A stretch of 64,000 bases of DNA from Patescibacteria group bacterium (GTDB lineage: Bacteria > Patescibacteriota > Minisyncoccia > Phycocordibacterales > UBA9973), in assembly GCA_040390725.1 (NCBI GenBank), contig JAZJXT010000001.1, positions 6,896 to 70,895 on the forward strand, read 5' to 3'. The notes below the pieces were generated by a model. It was not told the DNA's origin. It made no database searches and saw only the letters and a program-made list of their open reading frames with translations. Positions 3,906-62,114 of this stretch are shown here, in pieces. How positions within the stretch are numbered: position 1 is the stretch's first letter; every line of letters begins with the position of its first letter. A program made the translations under genes and the position numbers.

Positions 3906-4529
3906 ATGAAATTCATTCTTGGAACAAAAGAAAATATGACGGAGTATTTCTCTGAAGACGGCACAGTTATTCCTGTGACTATTATTTCAGCTGGCCCTGT
4001 GATTGTGACTCGTGTTTTTGAGGCGTCTAAGGACGGATACAATGCAGTGCAGGTAGGCTTTGGAACTCAAAAAGACAGCAGAATTGCAAAAGCTCAAAAG
4101 GGTGAGAAGGCTCAAATGAAAGGTGGACTTTACAGAACTTTGAAAGAATTCAGATTAAAACCTACTGATACTAATGATGCAAAAGAAGGCGATGTTATTG
4201 ATGTTTCCGCTTTTGCTCCGGGTGATAAATTACAAGTTTCCGGTGTTTCAAAAGGTAAAGGTTTTCAAGGTGTTGTCAAAAGACACGGTTTCGGGGGAGG
4301 TCCTCGTACACACGGTCAAAAGCACTCTGAAAGAGAGCCGGGAAGTATCGGAGGAGGTCTTCGTACACACGTGCCAAAAGGCATGCGTATGGCTGGTAGA
4401 ATGGGTTCCGATAGAATTACTTACAAGAATTTGAAAGTTGTTTACGTTGATCAAGAAAATAACGTTATGCTTATCAAAGGCGCATTACCAGGAAAGAGAG
4501 GTACTTTAATTGAAATAGTTTCAAGATAA
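3906..4529 (+). CDS. rplC: 50S ribosomal protein L3
   Basis: ILGTKENMTEYFSEDGTVIPVTII...GKGFQGVVKRHGF matches L3. Confidence 0.93.
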   Translation: MKFILGTKENMTEYFSEDGTVIPVTIISAGPVIVTRVFEASKDGYNAVQVGFGTQKDSRIAKAQKGEKAQMKGGLYRTLKEFRLKPTDTNDAKEGDVIDVSAFAPGDKLQVSGVSKGKGFQGVVKRHGFGGGPRTHGQKHSEREPGSIGGGLRTHVPKGMRMAGRMGSDRITYKNLKVVYVDQENNVMLIKGALPGKRGTLIEIVSR

Positions 4530-4533
4530 TAAT

Positions 4534-5193
4534 ATGGAAGCAAAAATATACAATCAGAAAGGGGTAGAAGCAGGGAAGATAACTCTTCCGGCAAAAGTTT
4601 TTTCCGCAAAATGGCGCGCTGACTTGGTGCACCAAGTTGTAGAAGGAATGCGTTCAAACAAGCGCGCTGGCACAGCTGACACAAAAGGACGCGGTGAAGT
4701 TCGTGGAGGAGGCAAGAAGCCTTGGAAACAAAAAGGTACAGGACGCGCTCGTCACGGATCTTCTCGTTCACCTATCTGGGTGGGTGGAGGTGTCACACAC
4801 GGTCCTTTGGCTGAGAAAAATTACAAGAGAAAAATCACTCGCAGTATGCGCGCGCAAGCATTGTTCTCAGTGCTTTCCAAGAAATTCAAAGACGGCGAAA
4901 TTATTTTTGTTGATACTCTGGCACCATCTGACATTAAGACAAAAACAGCTTTGGAAACAATGAAGAATTTATCAAAAGCAACAGGCGCAAAGCCATTGGC
5001 AAATTCAAAGAAGCCTAGAGTTTTGGTGGCATTGGGAGGACGCAGTGAAAAGACTGAAAAAAGTTACCGCAATTTGCCTCAGCTCGAAATAGCTTTTCTT
5101 AAAAATATAAACCCGTTAGACGTTTTGAATTATCAATATCTTTTAATCGAGAATCCGGAAGAATCCGTAAAGTTTTTGGAGGCCCGCGGTTAA
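4534..5193 (+). CDS. rplD: 50S ribosomal protein L4
   Basis: Position in the S10 operon plus an L4-like sequence (KPWKQKGTGRARHGS). Confidence 0.9.
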   Translation: MEAKIYNQKGVEAGKITLPAKVFSAKWRADLVHQVVEGMRSNKRAGTADTKGRGEVRGGGKKPWKQKGTGRARHGSSRSPIWVGGGVTHGPLAEKNYKRKITRSMRAQALFSVLSKKFKDGEIIFVDTLAPSDIKTKTALETMKNLSKATGAKPLANSKKPRVLVALGGRSEKTEKSYRNLPQLEIAFLKNINPLDVLNYQYLLIENPEESVKFLEARG

Positions 5194-19362: not shown

Positions 19363-19375
19363 TTTGTTTTATTGT

Positions 19376-19449
19376 CCGCCCTCTTGGATTCGAACCAAGG
19401 ACCCCAGAGGTATAAGCTCTGTGCTCTAACCAACTGAGCTAAGGGCGGA
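19376..19449 (-). tRNA. tRNA with anticodon loop CUUAUAC (anticodon UAU, Ile-type)
   Basis: Folded by hand into a cloverleaf: acceptor CCGCCCT/AGGGCGG, D arm GCTC-AGTTGGTTA-GAGC, anticodon stem CAGAG/CTCTG, T arm CTTGG-TTCGAAT-CCAAG. No CCA is encoded. Confidence 0.7.
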
Positions 19450-19640: not shown

Positions 19641-22600
19641 ATGTATATGAAGCTGGGAGTGAGTAGCACCAAGTTTAAATTTTTTGCAATTTTTGCTGTT
19701 GCTTTTTTTTGTTTCTTTTTTTCTGCGCATAGCGCGAGCGCTACGGCGAAGTTTGCCGTAGCTTCTGGAAACTGGAGCGCTACTTCTGGCGTTTGGGCGC
19801 TTACATCTTGCGCGACTGGCGCCGGAAATAATGTGCCGACTAGTAGTGATGCAGTGACTATTTGTAATGGAGTTACAGTTACAGTGGACGGTGCTGACGT
19901 TGCTTCTAGTATTACGGTTAATGCACCTACCACCGCAAATGGAATTACAATTAGCGGAACGAATACTCTCACTGTTACAAATGCGATTACCATGAATGCT
20001 CCGACGGCGGGAGTAAATGATACAATCGCTGTCGGCGCTGGGACTCTTTCTTCCGTAGGTATTACTATTAATGGAGGAGGTTCTTCAGGGTTTAATTCAA
20101 TTTTAAGTTTAAGTACGGGAACTATTACAACTACGGGTGGAATATCTTTTGGTGGTACAGTTGCTCAAGCACAATTGACGACGACCGACGTGGCGACGAT
20201 AAATCTGACTGGTACGATTTCTTCCGGCGGGACTCTCAGTATAAATTCCGGTACGCTTTTGAAAGCCACAGGTAGCAGTACTATAAACATTAGTAGCTCT
20301 TCTACTAATTGGGGCAAGGTTCAAGTTAATACGGGTACTCTCGGGTTGGGTGCTGCATTTACTGTGGCGACAGGTTTGCAAATTGATTCCGGCGCAACCT
20401 TGTCAGCAGGAGCAAATCTTGTAACTGATAAATGTGCGAGTACGGGATTGTCAGGGTTTACTATTAACGGAACATTATCCGGATCTGGCGGAGTAACTTT
20501 AGATACGGCGAGTTGTACTTTGGATGGTACCGGGTCAGTGACGAATACTGGCACATTTACTATGACAAATGATAAAACTATAGCTGGGACTGCGAGTTTG
20601 ACTGTGGGGGGCAGTGCTAGCGCTTCTACAATTTCTGCAGGTACAACAATAACAAATAATGGAACTTTTATTTTTGCAGGCACAGGGGCAGTGACGGGTG
20701 GTAATGCCACGACTACTATTTGGATTAACGCAGCGAATTCAACTTTGAAAATAGCAGGTACTGCTTTTTTGGCAACAGGAGTTTTAACAGCGACAGCGAG
20801 TGGTAATACTGTGGACTATAATAATAGTGCAGGGGTAGCAACAACACAAACACTTTTTAATACCACTTATTATAATTTTAATTTCGGAGGTACTAGCACG
20901 AAAGCTCTTCCTGCCGGCGGTATACAAGTTACTAATACTCTTTCTGTCAGTTCCGGTATTACGGCTACACTTAGTACTGGTGATTTTTTGACTACTAATT
21001 TAACTGTGACGGGCAGTGGAATATTTACTGGTACTGGTAGGACTATAACAATGAACGGAAATGGCGTTGGTACAGCAGGTAGATGGTTACATACTACAGG
21101 GGCAGGACAAATACGAACTAATTTAACTTTTAACTCGGCGGGAAATATTACTTTAGGAGATGGCACTACGGGATCAGCGGGTACAGTATTATGGGGGAAT
21201 TTTGGTTCTACTTTAACATGGACTGCTGGTACCATGATAACTACAAACTCTACATTAAATTTACATATGGATAATGCCCCTACAATATCTACAAATGGAA
21301 TGAAGTGGAACAATGTAACCTTGCTTAATACTGGTGGTGGAACACTTACATTGGGAAGTGACTTAGATATCGGGGGTAATTTAACTTGGCCTACTACTTC
21401 TACTGCGACTACTTTTGTCGGGGCAAATCGTATTATTACGTTACAAGGTAATTTAGTGATGGGAACTTCTTCTGCTGCAACTAACGCAGTGGCATCCGGA
21501 GCTTCTACTCAGACTATAAAAATGAATGCTAGTTCCGGTGCTCAAACTTGGTCAGGTCAACAAGCAATATCTGCAATCAGATTAACAGTAATACAGACAG
21601 GTTCGGCTTCATTCGCAATTAGCGGTACAGTGACACTTGCCACTACTGGATTTACTATTACTAGTGTTGGTTCTGGAGGATTTTCAGCAGCCGGAAGTAC
21701 CTTAAATTCATATAACAATGTTATTTTTAATACGAGTGGTTCAACATACCCCCTCTATAATGTGACTACTTGGGATGGTGGCAATACTATTCCTTTGAGT
21801 AGTAACTTATATATGACGGGAAATCTCGTTATGAATGGTAATACAAATGGTAGTAATGCTACTACTACATGGACTGGTCCATATTCAGTTACTGTTGGTG
21901 GTAACTTAACGCAAAGTTCAACTTCACTTAATATTACTGGTTCCACTAGCGGTGGTAATGTATTTCTTGGAATTATTATGAATGGCACTGGTACTTGGTC
22001 TAATGCTGCAGGTGCAACGAGCGTGATGACGGTGCCTTTGACATTTAATACTTCTGGTACGATTACTATCGGTAGTAGTGTGTATTATAGTACGGGAACT
22101 TTGTTGTATACTTTAGGCACAATTGATACATCTGCAAATAGTTCGACACTTAACATCGCAGGCTCGGCAACTTTAAATACTCCTACGGCAAGTATGAGTT
22201 GGTATAATTTAAACCAATCTACTACGGGAACTTTAACCTTGACGAGTGCAATAACCATTTCAAATACTCTTTCTGTCGCAAGTGGAGTGACTGAAACTAT
22301 TGCAACCAGTAATATAACAACAGTCAATTTAACCGTAACTAATACTGGTGTATTTTCTGGTAATGGAAGAACGATAACAGTAAGTGGAAGGTGGAGTCAC
22401 ACACAAGCCGGCTCAGGGAAAATAAGGTGCAATATAACTTTAACAAGCACTGCAACAATATCAGGAACAGTGTATTTTACAGGTGATAGTTTTCCAGTAA
22501 CATTAACAGGCGCAAGTGGAGTCACTACAACTGGAAGTATATTGGATATTGATGCTAGTGTCACATTAAATACTTCTACGATGTCATTCCAAGATATAAC

Positions 22601-31710: not shown

Positions 31711-33147
31711 ATGGAGCCGAATAAAAAATTAAAAAAAATAAATCCTATTTTAACTGCAACTGTTGTTTTGGTTTTATCTCTTTTTGTGACTGTGGCGATG
31801 TTTTTGTATGAAAAGAATATTTTTGAATCAGCCAATTCTGCAGATGTTACCAAGGTTTTAGTTTCAAGTTTCCCTGAGTATATTGCGCTATTTGGTTTTG
31901 CCGGGTCTCTTGCTTTGTTTGGAATAATTTTATCATTACTTACAGCACGCAGTCGCGCGGTGGACTTGGCAGACATCATGACGGCTTCTTTGAAAAAACG
32001 CACGGAAGAACTCGAATACGCGAAAGATAAAATTGAAAATGAAAAAAGAAAATTGAGCACGATTCTTTCTTCGATGGGGGAATGCTTAATAGCTGTGTCT
32101 GACGCAGGTGAAATAGTTTTGATGAATCAAATGGCTCAGGCTACCCTGGGCAGGGCAGAGGCAGATTCTACCGGAGAAAAAATCGAAGATGTTTTGACTC
32201 TTGTGAAAGATGGAAAATTAATACCGCAAAGGAGTCATCCCGTTTATAAAGCTATCAAGGGCAAAGATATTGCGCGTGTTTCTTTGAATGACAATGTTTC
32301 TATTAAAGATAAATCCGGGCGAGTTTTTCCCGTTGTTCTTTCTGCTGTTTCTACTTTGGGTAAAGTTGATGATGGGGAAGTTTCAGTTATTATAGTTTTC
32401 CGTGATGTATCTACGGAGAAAGCCGTGGACGAAGCAAAAACAGAATTCGTTTCTCTCGCTGCGCATCAGTTACGTATGCCACTTACTTCTATTCGATGGT
32501 ATTCCGAAATGCTTATTTCCGGTGATGCGGGAGTTCTTAATCCTGATCAAAAATCATATCTTGATGAAATTTATCAGAATAATAAACGCATGGTGAACCT
32601 AGTCAATCAGCTTCTTTCTGTTTCTCGTATTCGCCTCGGTACTTTTAAAATAGAACCTGTGCCGACCGATATGAATGAAATAGTGGAAAGTGTTTTAGGA
32701 GAATTAAAACCTGATATCACTAAAAAAAATATGCAGGTGGTAAAAAATTATACAAAAGATTTGGAAAAAATGAATGCTGATCCGGGGCTCTTGCGAGTGG
32801 TTTTGCAAAACCTTATTTCAAATGCGATAAAGTATACTCCGGAAAAGGGAACTATAACCATAGCTATCGAAGAAGGCAAAGAATTTTCAATAAAAGTTTC
32901 TGATACGGGCTACGGTATTCCGGAAGCTGACTCAGGAAAAATATTTTCCCAACTTTTCCGCGCGGAAAATATAAAAGGCAAAGATGTCGAAGGCACAGGC
33001 TTAGGACTTTATATGGTAAAAACAATCGTCGAACAAGTCGGCGGAGCCATTAGTTTCCATTCCGAAGAAAACAAAGGCACCACTTTCCGTGTAACTTTCC
33101 CAAAAATTGGAATGAAAGCCAAAAAAGGGGCTACGACGCTAGGATAG
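31711..33147 (+). CDS. sensor histidine kinase (2 TM, PAS, HisKA, HATPase_c)
   Basis: H-box LAAHQLRMPLTSI and N/G1/G2 boxes. Its start codon abuts the stop codon of the pilin gene. Confidence 0.85.
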   Translation: MEPNKKLKKINPILTATVVLVLSLFVTVAMFLYEKNIFESANSADVTKVLVSSFPEYIALFGFAGSLALFGIILSLLTARSRAVDLADIMTASLKKRTEELEYAKDKIENEKRKLSTILSSMGECLIAVSDAGEIVLMNQMAQATLGRAEADSTGEKIEDVLTLVKDGKLIPQRSHPVYKAIKGKDIARVSLNDNVSIKDKSGRVFPVVLSAVSTLGKVDDGEVSVIIVFRDVSTEKAVDEAKTEFVSLAAHQLRMPLTSIRWYSEMLISGDAGVLNPDQKSYLDEIYQNNKRMVNLVNQLLSVSRIRLGTFKIEPVPTDMNEIVESVLGELKPDITKKNMQVVKNYTKDLEKMNADPGLLRVVLQNLISNAIKYTPEKGTITIAIEEGKEFSIKVSDTGYGIPEADSGKIFSQLFRAENIKGKDVEGTGLGLYMVKTIVEQVGGAISFHSEENKGTTFRVTFPKIGMKAKKGATTLG

Positions 33148-33191: not shown

Positions 33192-33425
33192 ATGAAATTG
33201 CCAATGCAAAAATTTACTGCTGTATATAAAAAATCAGGCAAGTGGTACTCCGCTTGGATTGAAGAAATTCCCGGTGTAAATAGTCAGGGCAAAACACTAT
33301 CCGAAGCTAAGCAAAATCTAAAAGAAGCATTGATGCTTATTCTTGAAACTAATCGTTTCTTATCTAGAAAATCCGAAGGACGCTCTTCTTTTATTCGAAG
33401 AGAAAGTCTATCGGTTTTCGCTTAA
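33192..33425 (+). CDS. hicB: HicB-family antitoxin
   Basis: YSAWIEEIPGVNSQGKTLSEAKQNLKEAL is typical of the HicB/UPF0150 fold. Confidence 0.65.
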   Translation: MKLPMQKFTAVYKKSGKWYSAWIEEIPGVNSQGKTLSEAKQNLKEALMLILETNRFLSRKSEGRSSFIRRESLSVFA

Positions 33426-33431
33426 TTATTT

Positions 33432-33626
33432 ATGAAGCAAATTGACCTTATTAAACATATCAGAAAATATGGTTGTATGTTTGTGCGGGAAGGCGGTTCA
33501 CATAGTGTTTGGTATAATAGCCTGACAGGCAGGACTTCTACAATACCGAGACATAGTGAAATAAATAATCACACAGGTAAAAAGATTTGCGAAGACTTAG
33601 GAGTGCCGATAATTAAAAAGCGGTAA
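33432..33626 (+). CDS. hicA: HicA-family mRNA interferase toxin
   Basis: FVREGGSHSVWYN...TGRTSTIPRHSEIN matches the HicA motif; 64 aa. Confidence 0.78.
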   Translation: MKQIDLIKHIRKYGCMFVREGGSHSVWYNSLTGRTSTIPRHSEINNHTGKKICEDLGVPIIKKR

Positions 33627-33674: not shown

Positions 33675-33750
33675 TAGACATTTTTATGTGTGGATAACTG
33701 CACTTGCTAAAAGGCTACGGGGGGGGGGTATTATATATATGTCGTTTACC
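33675..33750 (+). promoter_or_regulatory. Conserved upstream element (copy 2) with G10 run 33719-33728 between -35-like cttgct and -10-like tattat
   Basis: Aligns with 54-134. The spacer is 19 nt in both copies. Confidence 0.45.
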
Positions 33751-33773
33751 AGTAGCTTAATTTTAATTAATAT

Positions 33774-34478
33774 ATGAAAGAAGGATTACCAAAGGCAGTA
33801 GAAAATAGTGGGGTAGAATCAAAAGGAATAAAAGGTTTTTTGGGGGATATAAAAGAATTAGGTAGAAAAGGATTGCTTGCCATTGGAACAGTGGTCGCAT
33901 TTACGGCACTTTTTTCTTCAGATGCATCTGCTCAGACAATTGAAAAAGAAGTTAGGCAATATCTTCCAGAGAATCCAGTTCTATTAAAGGCATCTGAGGT
34001 GCAGGCTATTAGAACCGTAGCTAGCGGGGATGCATTTTTAGATCATTTAAAAAAAAGTGGAGCAAAATTTACTACAGAAAAGACGAAATCAGGTGTTTCA
34101 GCAATGAAGTCAGGAGATGTTTCTTATATTTCGCTTTCCGAAGATCACGCAATCTTGGAATTACATAAAGATACCAGTGAAAATTCTGATAACTTTATGC
34201 TAGCTAAATTAGGGGAACATCATCACGTTGTTAGTGGGAAACATGGAGATACCACTGAAATTTTTAATGCAACATTTGATCCACATGCAGACGGTGACGG
34301 GGTTTTAACATTTACTCATTTAGTTAAGATTGGAGACAAGCTCGTGAGTGATGTACAAATAACTAATCCACTTAATGTTGAACTAGTAGAATATACTTCA
34401 CTTTTATCTAAAATTGAGGCTGATATTGCAGAAAGAGAAGCGAAACTTTCTAAGTCTCAATCCGGCGTAAAAAAATAA
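33774..34478 (+). CDS. hypothetical secreted/membrane protein (234 aa)
   Basis: ORF with an N-terminal hydrophobic segment. Confidence 0.5.
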   Translation: MKEGLPKAVENSGVESKGIKGFLGDIKELGRKGLLAIGTVVAFTALFSSDASAQTIEKEVRQYLPENPVLLKASEVQAIRTVASGDAFLDHLKKSGAKFTTEKTKSGVSAMKSGDVSYISLSEDHAILELHKDTSENSDNFMLAKLGEHHHVVSGKHGDTTEIFNATFDPHADGDGVLTFTHLVKIGDKLVSDVQITNPLNVELVEYTSLLSKIEADIAEREAKLSKSQSGVKK

Positions 34479-34514: not shown

Positions 34515-35102
34515 TTGTCTTTTCTAGTTCGTATTTGTTATAATAAACTGATGGAATTTAGTAAGAGAAATATAATACTTTGGGTTGTGGTAGTCATAGT
34601 TTTGATTGTCAGTGTTTATTCTTTTTTGCATTTTAACAATTCAAATGAAATTGGAATACCGGCAAGTAAAAAAGTGAACCCTGTAGCTAAGCCTGTTCTG
34701 ACGGGAGCATTGCCGTTAGACACTAGCACTTTGTCTGCCGCTGATAAAAAAGCATATGATGAACTTGCAAAATGGGTGGATATAAAAATTACCAATCAGC
34801 CTACTGTTTCTAAAAATCCTCAAACTGTAAAACTTCCAGCGGATTGGACTGCTCGAGAAGATTATTTGCTGACCGTGGTTCCGTCAAAAATGCCCGCGAA
34901 TATTCGCAATTTTCGTTCGGTTATTATGCGTCCTTCCAGATTTAAAATTTTATCTCGCGAAGATGCCATATACAGCGTCCCTGATGCCACGGATCCATAT
35001 TTCAAAGACCACTGCCATGCCGGCACAGTTATTGTTTGTTATGGAGGGAAGAATCCCGAGGTCAAGCATGTTTTTGATTTGATGTTTTATTTTAATAAGT
35101 AA
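34515..35102 (+). CDS. hypothetical membrane-anchored protein (195 aa)
   Basis: ORF with an N-terminal transmembrane helix. Confidence 0.45.
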   Translation: MSFLVRICYNKLMEFSKRNIILWVVVVIVLIVSVYSFLHFNNSNEIGIPASKKVNPVAKPVLTGALPLDTSTLSAADKKAYDELAKWVDIKITNQPTVSKNPQTVKLPADWTAREDYLLTVVPSKMPANIRNFRSVIMRPSRFKILSREDAIYSVPDATDPYFKDHCHAGTVIVCYGGKNPEVKHVFDLMFYFNK

Positions 35103-35136: not shown

Positions 35137-35511
35137 ATGGAAGAAAAAAAGAAAAAAATTTTAGTATGTGATGATGAACAAGCTATTAATCATGCTCTCC
35201 GATTAAAATTAGGCCATGAAGGCTTTGATGTTTCTTCGGCGCTTGACGGTGATGAATGCGTCGCAGCGTTAAATAAAGATAATTATGATCTTCTTTTGTT
35301 GGATTTAATTTTACCAAAGAAAGATGGTTTTGAAGTTTTAGCAGAAATGAAAAATATGGCATACAAAGTTCCCGTGGTTATCGTTTCGAATTTGGGACAA
35401 GAAGAAGATATTGCGCGAGTCAAACATCTCGGTGTGAGTGATTATTTAATAAAATCCAATACTTCTATTTCCGATATGGTTGCAAAAGTAAAAGAAGTTT
35501 TAAGTAAATAA
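35137..35511 (+). CDS. single-domain response regulator (CheY-like receiver)
   Basis: DD...LLLLDLILPKKDG...K receiver motifs. Confidence 0.8.
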   Translation: MEEKKKKILVCDDEQAINHALRLKLGHEGFDVSSALDGDECVAALNKDNYDLLLLDLILPKKDGFEVLAEMKNMAYKVPVVIVSNLGQEEDIARVKHLGVSDYLIKSNTSISDMVAKVKEVLSK

Positions 35512-37194: not shown

Positions 37195-38292
37195 ATGGAA
37201 CCTAAAAAGAAAAAAATATCAAAAAGTTCTTTTGGAATATATTTGGGACTGGCCAAAGAAAAAGAATATTTAATGGAAAATTTGAGTTTTCTTATTTCTT
37301 CCGGAATGCCGATAGGGGAAGCGCTTCGCTCTATTCAGGTCGAACTCAAAAGCAATTTTATGAAAAAAATTGTCGAGCAAGCAGTGGAAGACGTCGAAAA
37401 TGGCGTACCACTTTATCGGGCGCTCGACGATACCGGGCTTTTCGGAATGCATGAAATTTCCTTGATAAAAAATGGAGAAGAGTCCGGACTCCTGGTGGGG
37501 AATTTAAAAGTAATCTCTGAGCAGGCTGCCAAGAATCGTATTTTCAGATCTCGTTTGTCTTCGGCTTTGATGTATCCGACGCTTATATTGTCTGTCACCT
37601 TTTTGGTGGGTACAGGGGTGGCTTGGTTTATTTTACCCAGATTAGCGACGATGTTTTCTCAGCTTCATATAAAGCTCCCGCTTATCACTCAGATTTTTAT
37701 TTCTGTCGGTATTTTTTTGAGTAAATACGGTTCTATATTTTTCCCTTTTTTAATTGCTTTTGTTGTTTTGGCCATTTACTTGCTTTTTTATTTTCCAAAG
37801 ACACGTATAGCCGGGCAGTATCTTTTATTTTCGATTCCGGGCATCAGCAGATTGATTCAAGAATTGGAAATTTCCAGAATGGGATATCTTTTAGGATCAC
37901 TTAATAATGCCGGATTGCCTTTACTGCAAGCTATCGGCTCGCTTCGCGAATCTACACTTTCTCCTTTTTATGCGAAGTTTTATGATTTCTTATATATAAA
38001 AATAGAAGAAGGTTTTTCTTTTGAGGAAAGTTTTAAAGCATACAAAAATATTCGCAAGATATTGCCTTTATCCATTCAGCAAATAATAACTATCGGAGAA
38101 CAATCAGGCAATCTTTCGACTGCTCTTTTGAAAATAGGCCAAGCTTATGAAGAAAAAACAGAAGTCACCAGTAAAAATATTTCTATTGCCCTCGAGCCTA
38201 TTTTGCTTGTGATAGTTTGGGGGGGAGTGATGTTGGTGGCTATCGCTGTTATTTTGCCTATTTATAGTTTGGTTGGCGGAATAGGAAAGTAA
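37195..38292 (+). CDS. pilC: type IV pilus platform protein PilC (GspF family)
   Basis: Two GspF-like repeats with transmembrane helices. Confidence 0.88.
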   Translation: MEPKKKKISKSSFGIYLGLAKEKEYLMENLSFLISSGMPIGEALRSIQVELKSNFMKKIVEQAVEDVENGVPLYRALDDTGLFGMHEISLIKNGEESGLLVGNLKVISEQAAKNRIFRSRLSSALMYPTLILSVTFLVGTGVAWFILPRLATMFSQLHIKLPLITQIFISVGIFLSKYGSIFFPFLIAFVVLAIYLLFYFPKTRIAGQYLLFSIPGISRLIQELEISRMGYLLGSLNNAGLPLLQAIGSLRESTLSPFYAKFYDFLYIKIEEGFSFEESFKAYKNIRKILPLSIQQIITIGEQSGNLSTALLKIGQAYEEKTEVTSKNISIALEPILLVIVWGGVMLVAIAVILPIYSLVGGIGK

Positions 38293-49444: not shown

Positions 49445-49529
49445 TTTAAAACTGCGGAAGCGGTGAGATTCGAACTCACGGTCCGGTTAGGGACGACGGT
49501 TTAGTAAACCGTTGATTTAAGCCACTCAT
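49445..49529 (-). tRNA. type II (long variable arm) Ser-like tRNA; anticodon loop reads UUACUAA (anticodon ACU if canonical)
   Basis: Folded by hand: acceptor GGAAGCG/CGCTTCC, discriminator G, 3-bp D stem, anticodon stem ACGGT/ACCGT, 16-nt variable arm, T arm GTGAG-TTCGAAT-CTCAC. No CCA is encoded. Confidence 0.65.
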
Positions 49530-49934
49530 CCACGCTTCCAATATACAGTTGTCAGGATTCCGCGGATGAGTGGCTCTCTCGCTTTGCTCGCGGGTGAAAG
49601 CAAAGTAGTTTGCTTTCACCCCATCTCATCCACGCTTCCAATACTTAATTTTTTTCGGATTTTTAAACTTAAAAATCCGATTGCGGGACACTCGAGTTAA
49701 GTACCCACGCGTTCAACTACCGTAAGGGTATTCTAGCATATTTTATGGTGGCAAAACTAGGCACTCGGGTCGCTAGGCGGTTTTTCAAAATGAGACAAAT
49801 GAGACACTAAATGTGTTTTTTGTGTTTGTGTCTCATTTTTGTCTAGGCAAAAACTTACCCACTTAATTATTTGACTATAATATCTTTTATTTGTTATCAT
49901 TAAACTATTATAATTTTAAAAAAAGTTAATAATC

Positions 49935-52803: not shown

Positions 52804-53132
52804 ATTTTTTCTATTGCGTTTTATTAGTAAGCCCTTGAGTAGGACGCAAAAAGCCCACCACAGGTAGAGACCGAAGTCTCTCGTATCCGTTTCCAGATAC
52901 GGCGTATGAAGCACCCCATGATGGGTTCTTTATGCTTCATACGACTTTTGACCATATCCTTTGGAAATCCAAAGGGGTTAGGTCTTCTATTAATTTGTCT
53001 AATAATTCTAGCACATTTTTAGTGCTTTTGGCATCCTAGCTTAGATCAAAGGATTTGTGTAGTCGAGTTATCAACAGTTAGTAAATACAAGTAAACTCAC
53101 TTTAATTGTAATTTTTATTATATAATTTAAAT

Positions 53133-53611: not shown

Positions 53612-55105
53612 ATGAAAGAATGGGCGCCACAGCTTAAATACCGAAAGGAAGACACAGAACCAAAGCCTAACTTCGGCGTGCTAGCTTCCCCGGAGGGGGG
53701 GGCAACAATAAAGAATTTGAAGGAGAAAAATGAAGCGCTGGAAGCTCTTATTAAGGAAGCTATTGTGAAACTTATACCCATACTTGAAAAACATAATCCT
53801 GATAAATTTGGTACTGGATTTATTACTAAATACTTAAGGTATAATTATAATAAGCTAGTAAAAAATCTTCCTGGGAATAAGGAAAATAAAACGGACTGGA
53901 TGCCATTTGACAGTCAGTTGCCAAAGAAATGGCAAGAAAGGTTTTATCTTCCGGAAAAAAGGTTAAAATTTTTTGCGGCTAAAATTGTTTCAATTTTAGA
54001 AAAAGAAAAGCCAGAATTTTTTACTCCGGGTTCAATAAAAAAAATGGATCCAAGTATCTATATGATATTGACACAGATGCTACCGAGGGATGAAGAAGAT
54101 AATATTGACTATAAACCCTTTGAAGAAGAATTACCGGAGGAATGGAAAAACAAATTTGAATATGGGAATATTTCTTTTCCGTATGTTGTCTTGAAATTTG
54201 TTTTATTACTTGAAAAAGAAAAACCTGAAGAGTTTAATGTGACTTATATAAGAGATTACGCACCTGACATTTATGGCATGCTAGATCGGATTTTGCCAAA
54301 AAATCAAAAAGGTGAGCCTGATTGGTTATACTTTAAAAGCCAATTGCCGGAAAAATGGCAAGAAAGGTTTACATATGAGGAAAAAAAACGTTTATCTTTC
54401 GAAGAATGTGTTTCAAAAGTAGTTGAAAAGTTAAACGAAAAAAAGCCGGAGCAATTTGGACCTATTTGGATTAAAGAAAATTGCGGGGATATTGTATATA
54501 ATGAACTGCGTAGAATTTTACCAAGAAAGGATAACCAAGATGACCAAATTGATTGGCAACCCTTTCTTGATAAGTTACCTAAGGAGTGGCTAGCAAAGTG
54601 GAAACATAAAAAAGATCCATATTACAAGCATCTAAAAGAGTTCCCGAGTAAGAAAGAATTAAGGCAGATATTATTAAAATACAAAAATTATGGAGATGCA
54701 CATGAAAATAAACTTTATGTTTTGCCTTATTATCCGAATCTTTCAAAAGATGACAGGATAATTGCCAATAAAATTGTAGGGGAAATAATAAAGTTGGCAC
54801 AGAAAGGCAGTAGTGCCGCACGAGAAATGCTCGAGTTAGACTTAAATTTTGTCTGTGAGGAATGGATACAAAAATACCCCGGATACCCTTTTGAATTGAA
54901 GCCGTGGAAGGATAAACCGGAACAGTTAAAGAAACTTATACGGGGCTGTATTTATAATTATCAGAATAAGGGATCATTCTTTTCATACTTGTTTACGGCT
55001 TTAAAAATGGGCAGACCAACTTCAATTAAAATGGTAGAATTTGATGAGGGCTACATGAAAAAATTAAATGATTCAATGATGGAAGGGTTTGAGGATCAGT
55101 TATAA
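53612..55105 (+). CDS. hypothetical protein with 3.5 tandem roughly 70-aa repeats (DWxPFxxxLPxxWxxxF...LEKEKPExF)
   Basis: The repeats are visible in the translation. A G8 homopolymer lies at 53695-53702 near the 5' end. Confidence 0.6.
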   Translation: MKEWAPQLKYRKEDTEPKPNFGVLASPEGGATIKNLKEKNEALEALIKEAIVKLIPILEKHNPDKFGTGFITKYLRYNYNKLVKNLPGNKENKTDWMPFDSQLPKKWQERFYLPEKRLKFFAAKIVSILEKEKPEFFTPGSIKKMDPSIYMILTQMLPRDEEDNIDYKPFEEELPEEWKNKFEYGNISFPYVVLKFVLLLEKEKPEEFNVTYIRDYAPDIYGMLDRILPKNQKGEPDWLYFKSQLPEKWQERFTYEEKKRLSFEECVSKVVEKLNEKKPEQFGPIWIKENCGDIVYNELRRILPRKDNQDDQIDWQPFLDKLPKEWLAKWKHKKDPYYKHLKEFPSKKELRQILLKYKNYGDAHENKLYVLPYYPNLSKDDRIIANKIVGEIIKLAQKGSSAAREMLELDLNFVCEEWIQKYPGYPFELKPWKDKPEQLKKLIRGCIYNYQNKGSFFSYLFTALKMGRPTSIKMVEFDEGYMKKLNDSMMEGFEDQL

Positions 55106-60791: not shown

Positions 60792-62114
60792 ATGAATAAC
60801 ACAATATCAATACCAATTGGGACAATGGTAAAAGAAGTAGTCCCCGTAAGAGTAAAGTACTGTTTGTATGCAAGAAAATCAACGGAATCGGAAGAACGCC
60901 AAGTCCTATCAATCGATAGCCAAATAAAGGAAATGTTGCAGATGGCAGAAAGAGAAGGGCTTGAGATTGTAACAATGAAAAGAGAAAGTCACTCCGCCAA
61001 AGAAACAGGACAGCGACCAATCTTTAATGAAATAATAGAAGAACTAAGGCAAGAGAAATTTAACGGAATACTAACTTGGGCACCGGATAGAATAAGTAGA
61101 AATGCAGGCGACCTTGGTAAAATAGTAGATTTGATGGATTCAGGAAAACTTCATGAGATACGAACTTTTGGACAAAGATTTACAAACAGTCCAAGTGAAA
61201 AATTCTTGTTAATGATTTTAGGAAGTCAGGCAAAACTTGAAAATGACAACCGAGGAATAAATGTAAAAAGAGGATTACGCACACGAGCCGAGATGGGGCT
61301 ATGGGCAGGAATGGCACCATTGGGATATTTAAATCAAAATCGAATGGACAAGAAGTGTCAGGTAATAATTGATCCATTAAGAGGTCCGGTAATTAAAAGA
61401 ATGTTTGAAAAAGTCGCATATGAAAAGTATTCAGGAAGAAGGATATATAACTGGTTAAAATTTGAATTGAATTTTTACACAAGAGGAAATAAACCACTTA
61501 CCCTGAGTGGAATATACCGACTACTGGAAAACCCTTTTTACTACGGAGTGTTTGAAAAACCATTAAAGAGTGGAAATTGGTATCAAGGTAAACACGAACC
61601 TCTAATAACTCAAGAATTATTTGAAAAATCCAAAGCACAACTGAAGAGAGACAACATACAAAGAGAAAACAAAGAATTTGCATTTACCAAATTATTCACT
61701 TGTGGGTACTGCGGAAGTGGAATATCCGCAGAAGAAAAATGGAAACAACTTAAGAACGGAACAGATGCAAGATATATTTACTATTCTTGTAGTAGGGCAA
61801 GAGATAGGAATTGTAAAAACAAATATATACGAGAAGAAGAATTAATAACTGAATTGCTTAAAATTATAGACAAGGTAAATATTAATGAGCTTGGAATGAG
61901 GCAAAAACTCGAAGATGAAATTGCACGATTTAATATTTTTCAAAGGTCAGTATTGGGCAGTACGGATAAAATTAAAAATAATCAGGAGACGGACATACGA
62001 AATTATGCTAAATATATTCTCAAAGAAGGTTCGACGAGTGAGAAAAGAGAATTGCTTGGGAATTTGAGGAGTAGGATAGTTTATAAGGATAAGATACTTA
62101 CATTACTAAATTAA
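60792..62114 (+). CDS. large serine recombinase (resolvase/invertase catalytic domain + recombinase domain + zinc ribbon)
   Basis: YARKSTESEE...SIDSQ catalytic Ser region, and a C-terminal CGYCGS...C zinc ribbon. Confidence 0.85.
   Translation: MNNTISIPIGTMVKEVVPVRVKYCLYARKSTESEERQVLSIDSQIKEMLQMAEREGLEIVTMKRESHSAKETGQRPIFNEIIEELRQEKFNGILTWAPDRISRNAGDLGKIVDLMDSGKLHEIRTFGQRFTNSPSEKFLLMILGSQAKLENDNRGINVKRGLRTRAEMGLWAGMAPLGYLNQNRMDKKCQVIIDPLRGPVIKRMFEKVAYEKYSGRRIYNWLKFELNFYTRGNKPLTLSGIYRLLENPFYYGVFEKPLKSGNWYQGKHEPLITQELFEKSKAQLKRDNIQRENKEFAFTKLFTCGYCGSGISAEEKWKQLKNGTDARYIYYSCSRARDRNCKNKYIREEELITELLKIIDKVNINELGMRQKLEDEIARFNIFQRSVLGSTDKIKNNQETDIRNYAKYILKEGSTSEKRELLGNLRSRIVYKDKILTLLN

Follow-up and report, generated by a model that had tools for sequence, protein, structure and literature searches.

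The locus and its surroundings

The window, i.e. the whole stretch of 64,000 nt analysed here, belongs to a 274,923-bp contig of a MAG recorded as 'Patescibacteria group bacterium'; the same DNA, with both of the genes discussed below, is present in the Logan assembly of run SRR26324628. The FtsH encoded in the window shares about 85% identity with proteins that carry the names Nomurabacteria, Paceibacterota or Minisyncoccia. The window contains two G10 homopolymers, at 108-117 and 33719-33728, each of them in a module of about 90 nt. The second module (copy 2) and the gene behind it sit within a type IV pilus-like cluster, in agreement with the initial annotation, and the features of this neighbourhood are the following:

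29004, 31201 and 38757: pilin-like N_methyl proteins of the pilus-like cluster
31711-33147: histidine kinase of the pilus-like cluster
33192-33626, + strand: hicB and hicA, a toxin-antitoxin pair beside copy 2
33774-34478, + strand: orphan CDS of 234 aa (MES2023094.1, V4439_00220)
34551-35102: TM protein, after the 234-aa gene, with a TTGTCT-N18-TATAAT promoter of its own
35137-35511: receiver-only response regulator, without DNA-binding domain, between the TM protein and PilB
downstream of the response regulator: PilB/T2SSE and PilC/T2SSF of the pilus-like cluster

The 234-aa gene had been described as lying between hicBA and pilB; the position is correct, but two further genes (34551-35102 and 35137-35511) intervene before pilB. 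The first module (copy 1) is 33 kb away from the pilus genes and precedes a 208-aa orphan CDS; it is divergent from a PemK-like toxin-antitoxin pair (4243-4808, minus strand, on the Logan contig L010). The presence of toxin-antitoxin pairs beside both G10 modules hints that the orphan genes occupy variable, island-like spots.

A few other features of the window can be mentioned. At the gene starts 907, 6445, 34551, 53133 (+) and 58394 (-), a good -10 sequence ends exactly 6 nt before the ATG, a position that points to leaderless mRNAs as a probably common feature of this genome. A LOOT RNA (Rfam RF03000) was found on the minus strand at 52866-52984 (89 bits for a gathering score of 46.4). ARAGORN called a tRNA-Ile with anticodon TAT at 19374-19448 and a tRNA-Ser with anticodon ACT at 49454-49539, both on the minus strand; these two anticodons are unusual in bacteria. 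Finally, a large serine recombinase (Resolvase, Recombinase and Zn_ribbon_recom domains; 60792-62114, + strand), together with a DUF4238 protein (L135, 2503-3792), suggests that a mobile element is integrated at the 3' end of the window.

Anatomy of the two G10 modules

Both modules show the same succession of elements, i.e. TGTGGATAACT, N3, CTTGC(C/T), N11, G10, TATTATATA, N, ATGTCG, an AT-rich leader and an ATG. For copy 2, they are:

33689-33699, + strand: conserved 11-mer TGTGGATAACT, at about -51 to -41 relative to the putative start site; candidate transcription-factor site
33703-33708, + strand: CTTGCT, the CTTGC core of which is conserved in copy 1 and in three modules from elsewhere (L010 copy 3, L014 and L007, see below)
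33704-33709, + strand: putative -35 hexamer TTGCTA (4/6 to TTGACA)
33719-33728, + strand: G10 homopolymer, forming the 3' half of the promoter spacer
33729-33734, + strand: putative -10 hexamer TATTAT (5/6 to TATAAT), inside the conserved TATTATATA (33729-33737)
33739-33744, + strand: ATGTCG, conserved and proximal to the putative start site
33739-33773, + strand: ATGTCG plus AT-rich leader, which aligns with copy 1, L010 copy 3 and the region upstream of P0004 (see below)
33774, + strand: start codon ATG, which opens the 234-codon ORF

The corresponding features of copy 1 are:

78-133, + strand: putative promoter, with the same order of elements as copy 2
78-88, + strand: 11-mer, identical to that of copy 2
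93-98, + strand: putative -35 hexamer TTGCCA
108-117, + strand: G10, also G10 in the Logan contig L010
118-123, + strand: putative -10 hexamer TATTAT, within the same TATTATATA 9-mer, which abuts the G tract
128-133, + strand: ATGTCG
165, + strand: start codon ATG
165-791, + strand: orphan CDS of 208 aa (MES2023059.1, V4439_00040), charged and helical

The spacer of copy 2 is made of AAAGGCTAC followed by G10 and is 19 nt long, as is that of copy 1, with the G tract at spacer positions 10 to 19 in both; the length would be 18 nt with G9 and 17 nt with G8. From the start of the -10 hexamer to the ATG there are 45 to 47 nt, on the coding strand and in front of a stand-alone gene in both cases. 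In short, both copies have -35-like and -10-like hexamers separated by a spacer of the 16-19 nt class upstream of a gene, and both carry, inside this core promoter spacer, a homopolymer of at least about 8 nt as in promoters of the porA/fetA type. The initial annotation, which had recognized at 33675-33750 a repeat of the promoter module, its 19-nt spacer containing G10, was accurate for every element; the ORF at which this copy points is 46 nt downstream. The -35 hexamers of the two copies are at 4-5/6 and the -10 hexamers at 5/6, by reference to an E. coli-type sigma-70 consensus which may not be that of the host. The module therefore reads as a sigma-70-type promoter, and we infer from its layout that the hexamers are used by RNA polymerase.

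When the two copies are aligned, the similarity spans about 90 nt, from the 11-mer through the start codon, and ends at the ATG. Conservation is 100% for the 11-mer, CTTGC, G10, TATTATATA and ATGTC, with only 6 of the 11 positions alike in the N11 segment that links CTTGC to the G tract; this pattern looks like the result of selection acting on the boxes rather than of a recent duplication. The ATGTCG sequence, 4 nt past the -10, is no more than suggestive of a transcription start there. No Shine-Dalgarno sequence is present in the leader of copy 2 (33739-33773). Folding of the module region gave z-scores of -1.4 to +1.0 (0.3 to 1.0 for the leader), i.e. no significant secondary structure; together with the lack of an Rfam match at the module, these values ruled out a structured RNA or riboswitch. 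A mini-ORF starting at the conserved ATGTCG was also discarded: it has 3, 12 and 27 codons in three copies and is not conserved.

The genes behind the modules

The 234-aa protein displays the layout of a Sec signal (charge, hydrophobic core, A-x-A): R31 and K32 are followed by a hydrophobic core, GLLAIGTVVAFTALF, at residues 33 to 47 (Kyte-Doolittle value of 2.21) and then by D-A-S-A|Q-T. The N-terminal hydrophobic segment previously attributed to the product of 33774-34478 is therefore real, with A-S-A|QT behind it. A 30-aa extension precedes the signal-like segment, which is unusual; the layout itself is kept in P0004, a homologue from another genome (see below), and the product is probably secreted or membrane-anchored. 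No hydrophobic segment was found in the 208-aa product of copy 1 or in the 161-aa product of a third, related module (maximal 15-residue hydropathy of 0.65 and 0.56, respectively). A strong intrinsic terminator (805-829) stands behind the copy 1 gene.

Searches of the 234-aa and 208-aa proteins gave no significant match in Pfam, NCBIfam or PHROG, and a word-indexed homology search returned self-matches only. The AlphaFold2 single-sequence models (pLDDT of 39.5 for the 234-aa and 51.2 for the 208-aa protein) were too poor for a fold search. A full HMMER search with the 234-aa protein retrieved P0004 as its sole true homologue (231 aa, 27% identity over 224 aligned positions), besides two weak matches to repeat domains. 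The P0004 gene is monocistronic, with its own terminator, and lies between rplB and rpsS; comparison showed no conservation between the neighbour of the 234-aa gene and that of P0004. In that genome (L011, 2925-7132; GCA_964622505.1), P0004 and five other non-ribosomal genes interrupt the rplB-rpsS ribosomal-protein cluster.

The initial annotation had gone further and proposed a regulon of exported proteins linked to the pilus and to an adhesin. The comparisons did not support this proposal. The three module-driven proteins (234, 208 and 161 aa) are mutually unrelated and one in three has a hydrophobic segment. As for the pilus, copy 1 is at the distance given above and P0004, between rplB and rpsS, is not near pilus genes. 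A relationship between the 234-aa protein and the 3121-aa giant protein was also considered, and none was found on comparison.

Related promoters in the same and other genomes

A third paralogue of the module (copy 3), at 460-545 of L010, precedes the first letter of the window by about 4.4 kb and stands in front of the unrelated 161-aa orphan gene. It reads CTTGCT, N17, TACTAT, agagtATGTCGcttagaaataatttaattt...ATG (with agagtATGTCG after TACTAT). It shares the -35, the -10, ATGTCG and the leader with copies 1 and 2, has no G tract, and its 17-nt spacer is non-repetitive. Upstream of P0004, the sequence is TTGACA, CAAGCAATAGGGGGCGAG (18 nt), TATACT, ATATGTAG...TTTAATTTTTAATTATATG, without any difference between three assemblies; the leader is similar to that of the window copies, and at the place of their G10 the spacer holds GGGGGCGAG, an interrupted G run. 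A near-identical module is on a metagenome contig, L014, where the order is TGTGGATAACT-ttcg-CTTGCC-aagaagcctt-G9-TATTATATA, with a spacer of 18 nt; the 11-mer and TATTATATA were required by the search pattern, and CTTGCC was not. The SmpB of the L014 genome and that of a close relative of the window organism share only 48% identity. Taken together, copy 3, the region upstream of P0004 and L014 mark the module as a promoter plus leader.

Two additional observations were made on L014. An ATG is found 6 nt past the TATTAT -10 of the G9 module. The intergenic region between smpB and the module (130-300, minus-strand reading) contains short GACAT/ATGTC palindromes, such as agacattaagtgtct and gacatcggatgtc, which are possible operator sites; ATGTC is also the sequence conserved after the -10 in the window modules.

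Poly-G spacers were encountered in two other places. A scan of species genomes in which TATTATATA was required and the 11-mer was not gave L007 (2881-2939, minus strand, Saccharibacteria MAG CAZOUW010000015), with TTGCCA-N9-G9-TATTATATA (TATTAT) ahead of the gene for a 501-aa protein, membrane-bound or secreted, that carries a Fib_succ_major domain; it provides a further case, the second in Patescibacteria, of a promoter spacer with poly-G. In the rabbit-gut 'Bacilli' MAGs CANQIY01 and CANRCE01 (L001-L006 and L008), a cassette consisting of CTTGCAAAACTTGACTCC, G8 or G9, TATTATATAAT and a Shine-Dalgarno sequence is present in at least five copies in one MAG, before paralogous MQVINKK... genes with a signal-peptide-like N-terminus. 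Its tract lengths differ between copies and it looks like an independent multi-gene poly-G promoter family.

The module could also be viewed as a generic dispersed or mobile repeat of about 90 nt (MITE-like, or the remnant of a mobile cassette) whose position upstream of genes is incidental. That both G10 copies adjoin toxin-antitoxin pairs (PemK-like and hicBA), that a near-identical module exists in the distantly related L014 genome and that the driven genes are orphans would fit such a repeat. We nevertheless hold it to be very unlikely: in the roughly 69 kb examined of the 275-kb contig there are two copies plus a degenerate one, all oriented alike and equally distant from a start codon, the similarity stops at the ATG with conservation concentrated in the promoter boxes, and a strict scan of 2.9 M viral contigs gave no match. 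The copies have neither shared terminal inverted repeats nor palindromes, which eliminated the MITE version. The numerous copies without an associated gene that the initial annotation had named as evidence of a generic repeat did not turn up in these 69 kb, where all copies are upstream of start codons.

Rarity of the module and of long G runs

The runs of five or more Gs in the window (GC content of 37%) are 18 G5, 2 G6, 1 G7, 1 G8 and 2 G10, when about zero G10 tracts are expected by chance; the G7 is at 38219-38225, the two G6 are at 20606 and 25302, and the longest C run is 5. Counted as words of G8 or longer, seven were observed against 0.52 expected, and none of 100 shuffles of the window reached seven. 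The exact 11-mer TGTGGATAACT is found in the window only inside the two modules, and an nhmmer model built from 70-170 and 33681-33779 detected no further module copy in the window. Outside, the module with exact hexamers had one Patescibacteria match among 185,579 species genomes, and the module with the 11-mer, under strict conditions, one match in the JGI metagenomes (L014). A looser scan of the viral contigs gave matches that fit chance plus phage DnaA-box arrays, none of them with a -10. Since the module is rare and a 20.7-kb stretch of a close relative is devoid of G or C runs of 7 or longer, neither appears to be a general habit of the lineage.

The only other G run of at least 8 in the window is the G8 at 53695-53702. 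It covers codons 28-31 of a 497-aa ORF (53612-55105, + strand) without Pfam match, and a change of one G in either direction (G7 or G9) truncates the ORF to 32 or 40 aa. This ORF is a candidate translational phase-variable gene. The location of the tract in the 5' part of an ORF is the classic one for a contingency locus, and it strengthens the view that this genome may keep G tracts at switch positions.

The upstream 11-mer and its resemblance to a DnaA box

Reverse-complemented, the first 9 nt of TGTGGATAACT (TGTGGATAA) give a perfect DnaA box, TTATCCACA. Read on the minus strand, these perfect 9-mers occupy 78-86 and 33689-33697, each separated by 6 nt from the -35 that follows; the same spacing is found in L014, for which the presence of the 11-mer was imposed by the search pattern. 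The box is missing from the paralogue without G tract (L010 copy 3, which has TGGGGCAACTT instead) and from L007. Three perfect DnaA 9-mers exist in the 64-kb window, and matches with at most one mismatch are not enriched (20 for 18.3 expected). An 11-mer with one mismatch at 53066, near the LOOT RNA, was rejected, being without surrounding module. As a regulatory site, the DnaA-box resemblance is a lead only. In phage contigs (L016, L024, L026, L028 and many other IMG/VR loci), arrays of sequences resembling TGTGGATAACT and the DnaA box are followed by short G runs; these arrays probably serve as origins of phage replication and have no relation to the promoter module.

A proposed promoter with a slipping spacer

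The interpretation that we favour, and hold to be somewhat better than an even bet, is that of a housekeeping-sigma promoter in which slippage of the G10 spacer generates phase or rheostat variation of transcription. The promoter and its short AT-rich leader would be reused before at least three unrelated single-gene orphan cistrons in a Parcubacteria/Paceibacteria-like genome. Slipped-strand mispairing at replication would add or remove Gs in the spacer, and each gain or loss would alter the spacing and the angular phasing of the -35 and of the 11-mer relative to the -10; being on the same side of the tract, the -35 and the 11-mer would move together. The working spacers would be those of 17-18 nt, i.e. 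G8-G9, so that expression of the gene would come from the minority of cells with G9 or G8. The loci would switch stochastically and each on its own, as contingency loci do, and independent G tracts switching independently would not make a co-regulated regulon.

The spacers of the homologous promoters are 17-18 nt long, and a promoter scanner working with 16-18-nt spacers does not call the module at G10. Hence G8-G9 is presumed to be the stronger configuration and G10 a weak or silent one: the assembled state, with its 19-nt spacer, is probably low or off. Both the weaker activity of this state and the variation of tract length in the population are deduced from the sequence; switching as such was not observed.

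Tract length in the available assemblies

Both tracts are G10 in the MAG and in the Logan assembly of SRR26324628, i.e. no heterogeneity was seen between two assemblies that possibly derive from one run (SRR26324628 may be the source of the MAG and does not count as independent, and all records of the organism come from a single sample). This single origin, and the error-prone nature of the exact length of long homopolymers, are what could be invoked to see in the G10 runs a sequencing or assembly artefact, for example the poly-G of two-colour chemistry. Such an origin strikes us as barely credible: the tracts lie within long contigs and are flanked on both sides by sequence that is homologous between the copies, two assemblers reproduce them, and G9 versions are found in unrelated projects.

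A more serious alternative, though still an unlikely one in our judgement, is that the promoter is real but held in a fixed state, the G tract being an expanded G-rich spacer and expression being constitutive or set by a protein, possibly DnaA, bound at TGTGGATAACT. The two copies are of equal length and unchanged in both assemblies. If the tracts switched freely and without selection, unequal lengths would be at least as likely as two tracts of exactly G10; the equality could be fortuitous, or reflect an equilibrium of mutation or selection for one fixed length. Moreover, the 11-mer is perfect in the three copies with a G tract (L014 included, where the pattern required it) and its core is a perfect DnaA box; and the homologous P0004 promoter, as judged from its sequence, would work without a pure tract. 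What argues the other way is the nature of the tract. To our knowledge, homopolymers of at least 9 Gs are intrinsically hypermutable in every bacterium tested. The polyG tracts of Campylobacter jejuni, as presented in PMC3401435, are an example of such hypermutable G homopolymers. In addition, the length does differ among homologous modules (G9 in those of other organisms against G10, with the interrupted G5CGAG in the P0004 promoter), the two G10 are outliers in the distribution of G runs in the window, which argues that they are maintained, and the perfect DnaA 9-mer is not clearly enriched, near-matches being at the level expected by chance.

Comparison with known systems

The proposed slipping-spacer promoter has close parallels in pathogens. 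In Neisseria fetA and porA, a poly-C/G tract between the -35 and the -10 sets the level of expression (PMC5320596). As in the modules described here, porA (poly-G), fetA/frpB and opc (poly-C) have a G/C homopolymer of about 9-14 nt in the spacer, abutting or near the -10. Slippage in porA and fetA changes the spacer by 1-nt steps, so that the single gene behind it is expressed in a graded or an on/off manner (PMC5320596); the corresponding spacer of our modules measures 19 nt with G10. The differences are that the present host is an uncultured environmental Patescibacterium and not a host-adapted pathogen, that the genes are orphans with at least one product not exported, that one cassette is reused for unrelated genes, and that length variation is, in our case, presumed from sequence data.

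The fim2 and fim3 promoters of Bordetella pertussis have their poly-C between the site of the BvgA activator and the -10. If TGTGGATAACT were an activator site, the G tract would likewise set the distance and phasing of this site and of the -35 region relative to the -10, and stochastic switching would be joined with factor-dependent control. Unlike the BvgA-controlled fim2/fim3, however, the response regulator of the copy 2 locus is without a DNA-binding domain. With loci of the Campylobacter jejuni/Haemophilus type, the common traits are a low-GC genome and the rarity of G runs of 8 or more, outliers located at promoters or at the 5' ends of ORFs. In the C. jejuni data of PMC3401435, modal polyG lengths of 9-10 are typical. 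The C. jejuni tracts are mostly intragenic, whereas two of the three tracts considered here are in promoter spacers.

Cassettes are also known elsewhere. The promoters of the Mycoplasma variable lipoproteins (vlp of M. hyorhinis) contain a poly-A homopolymer. Like the window modules, these and the cassettes of the rabbit-gut Bacilli MAG are promoter/leader units with a homopolymer placed before several genes in a small genome; they drive paralogous surface lipoprotein or signal-peptide genes, whereas the genes downstream of the window modules are unrelated.

Biological significance

Phase variation by simple-sequence repeats is a textbook feature of host-adapted pathogens. Patescibacteria have tiny genomes with few regulators, and many of them are thought to live attached to other cells. 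No report of phase variation, or of contingency loci made of simple-sequence repeats, in Patescibacteria or CPR was found in the literature searched. The mechanism proposed above is a known one and, as far as that literature shows, the host lineage is new; the interest is moderate and conditional on the tracts being variable. Were they static, the module would be merely a duplicated promoter, of little interest. The set of sequences also offers a promoter model for the lineage: a -35, 17-18 nt, a -10 and an AT-rich leader without Shine-Dalgarno sequence, with many starts of the leaderless type.

If the slipping-spacer promoter is what it appears to be, a stochastic switch placed on orphan genes, part of which probably code for surface proteins, would be a cheap means of diversification in the face of hosts or phages. 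A broader version, which we regard as improbable, would make the module a portable phase-variable cassette, distributed across distant Patescibacteria before fast-evolving orphan genes next to toxin-antitoxin pairs, its output being tied to DnaA and the replication status. Should it be correct, the cassette would serve bet-hedging by ultra-small episymbionts for proteins of host interaction or phage evasion, and no contingency-locus system would have been described before it in the Candidate Phyla Radiation.
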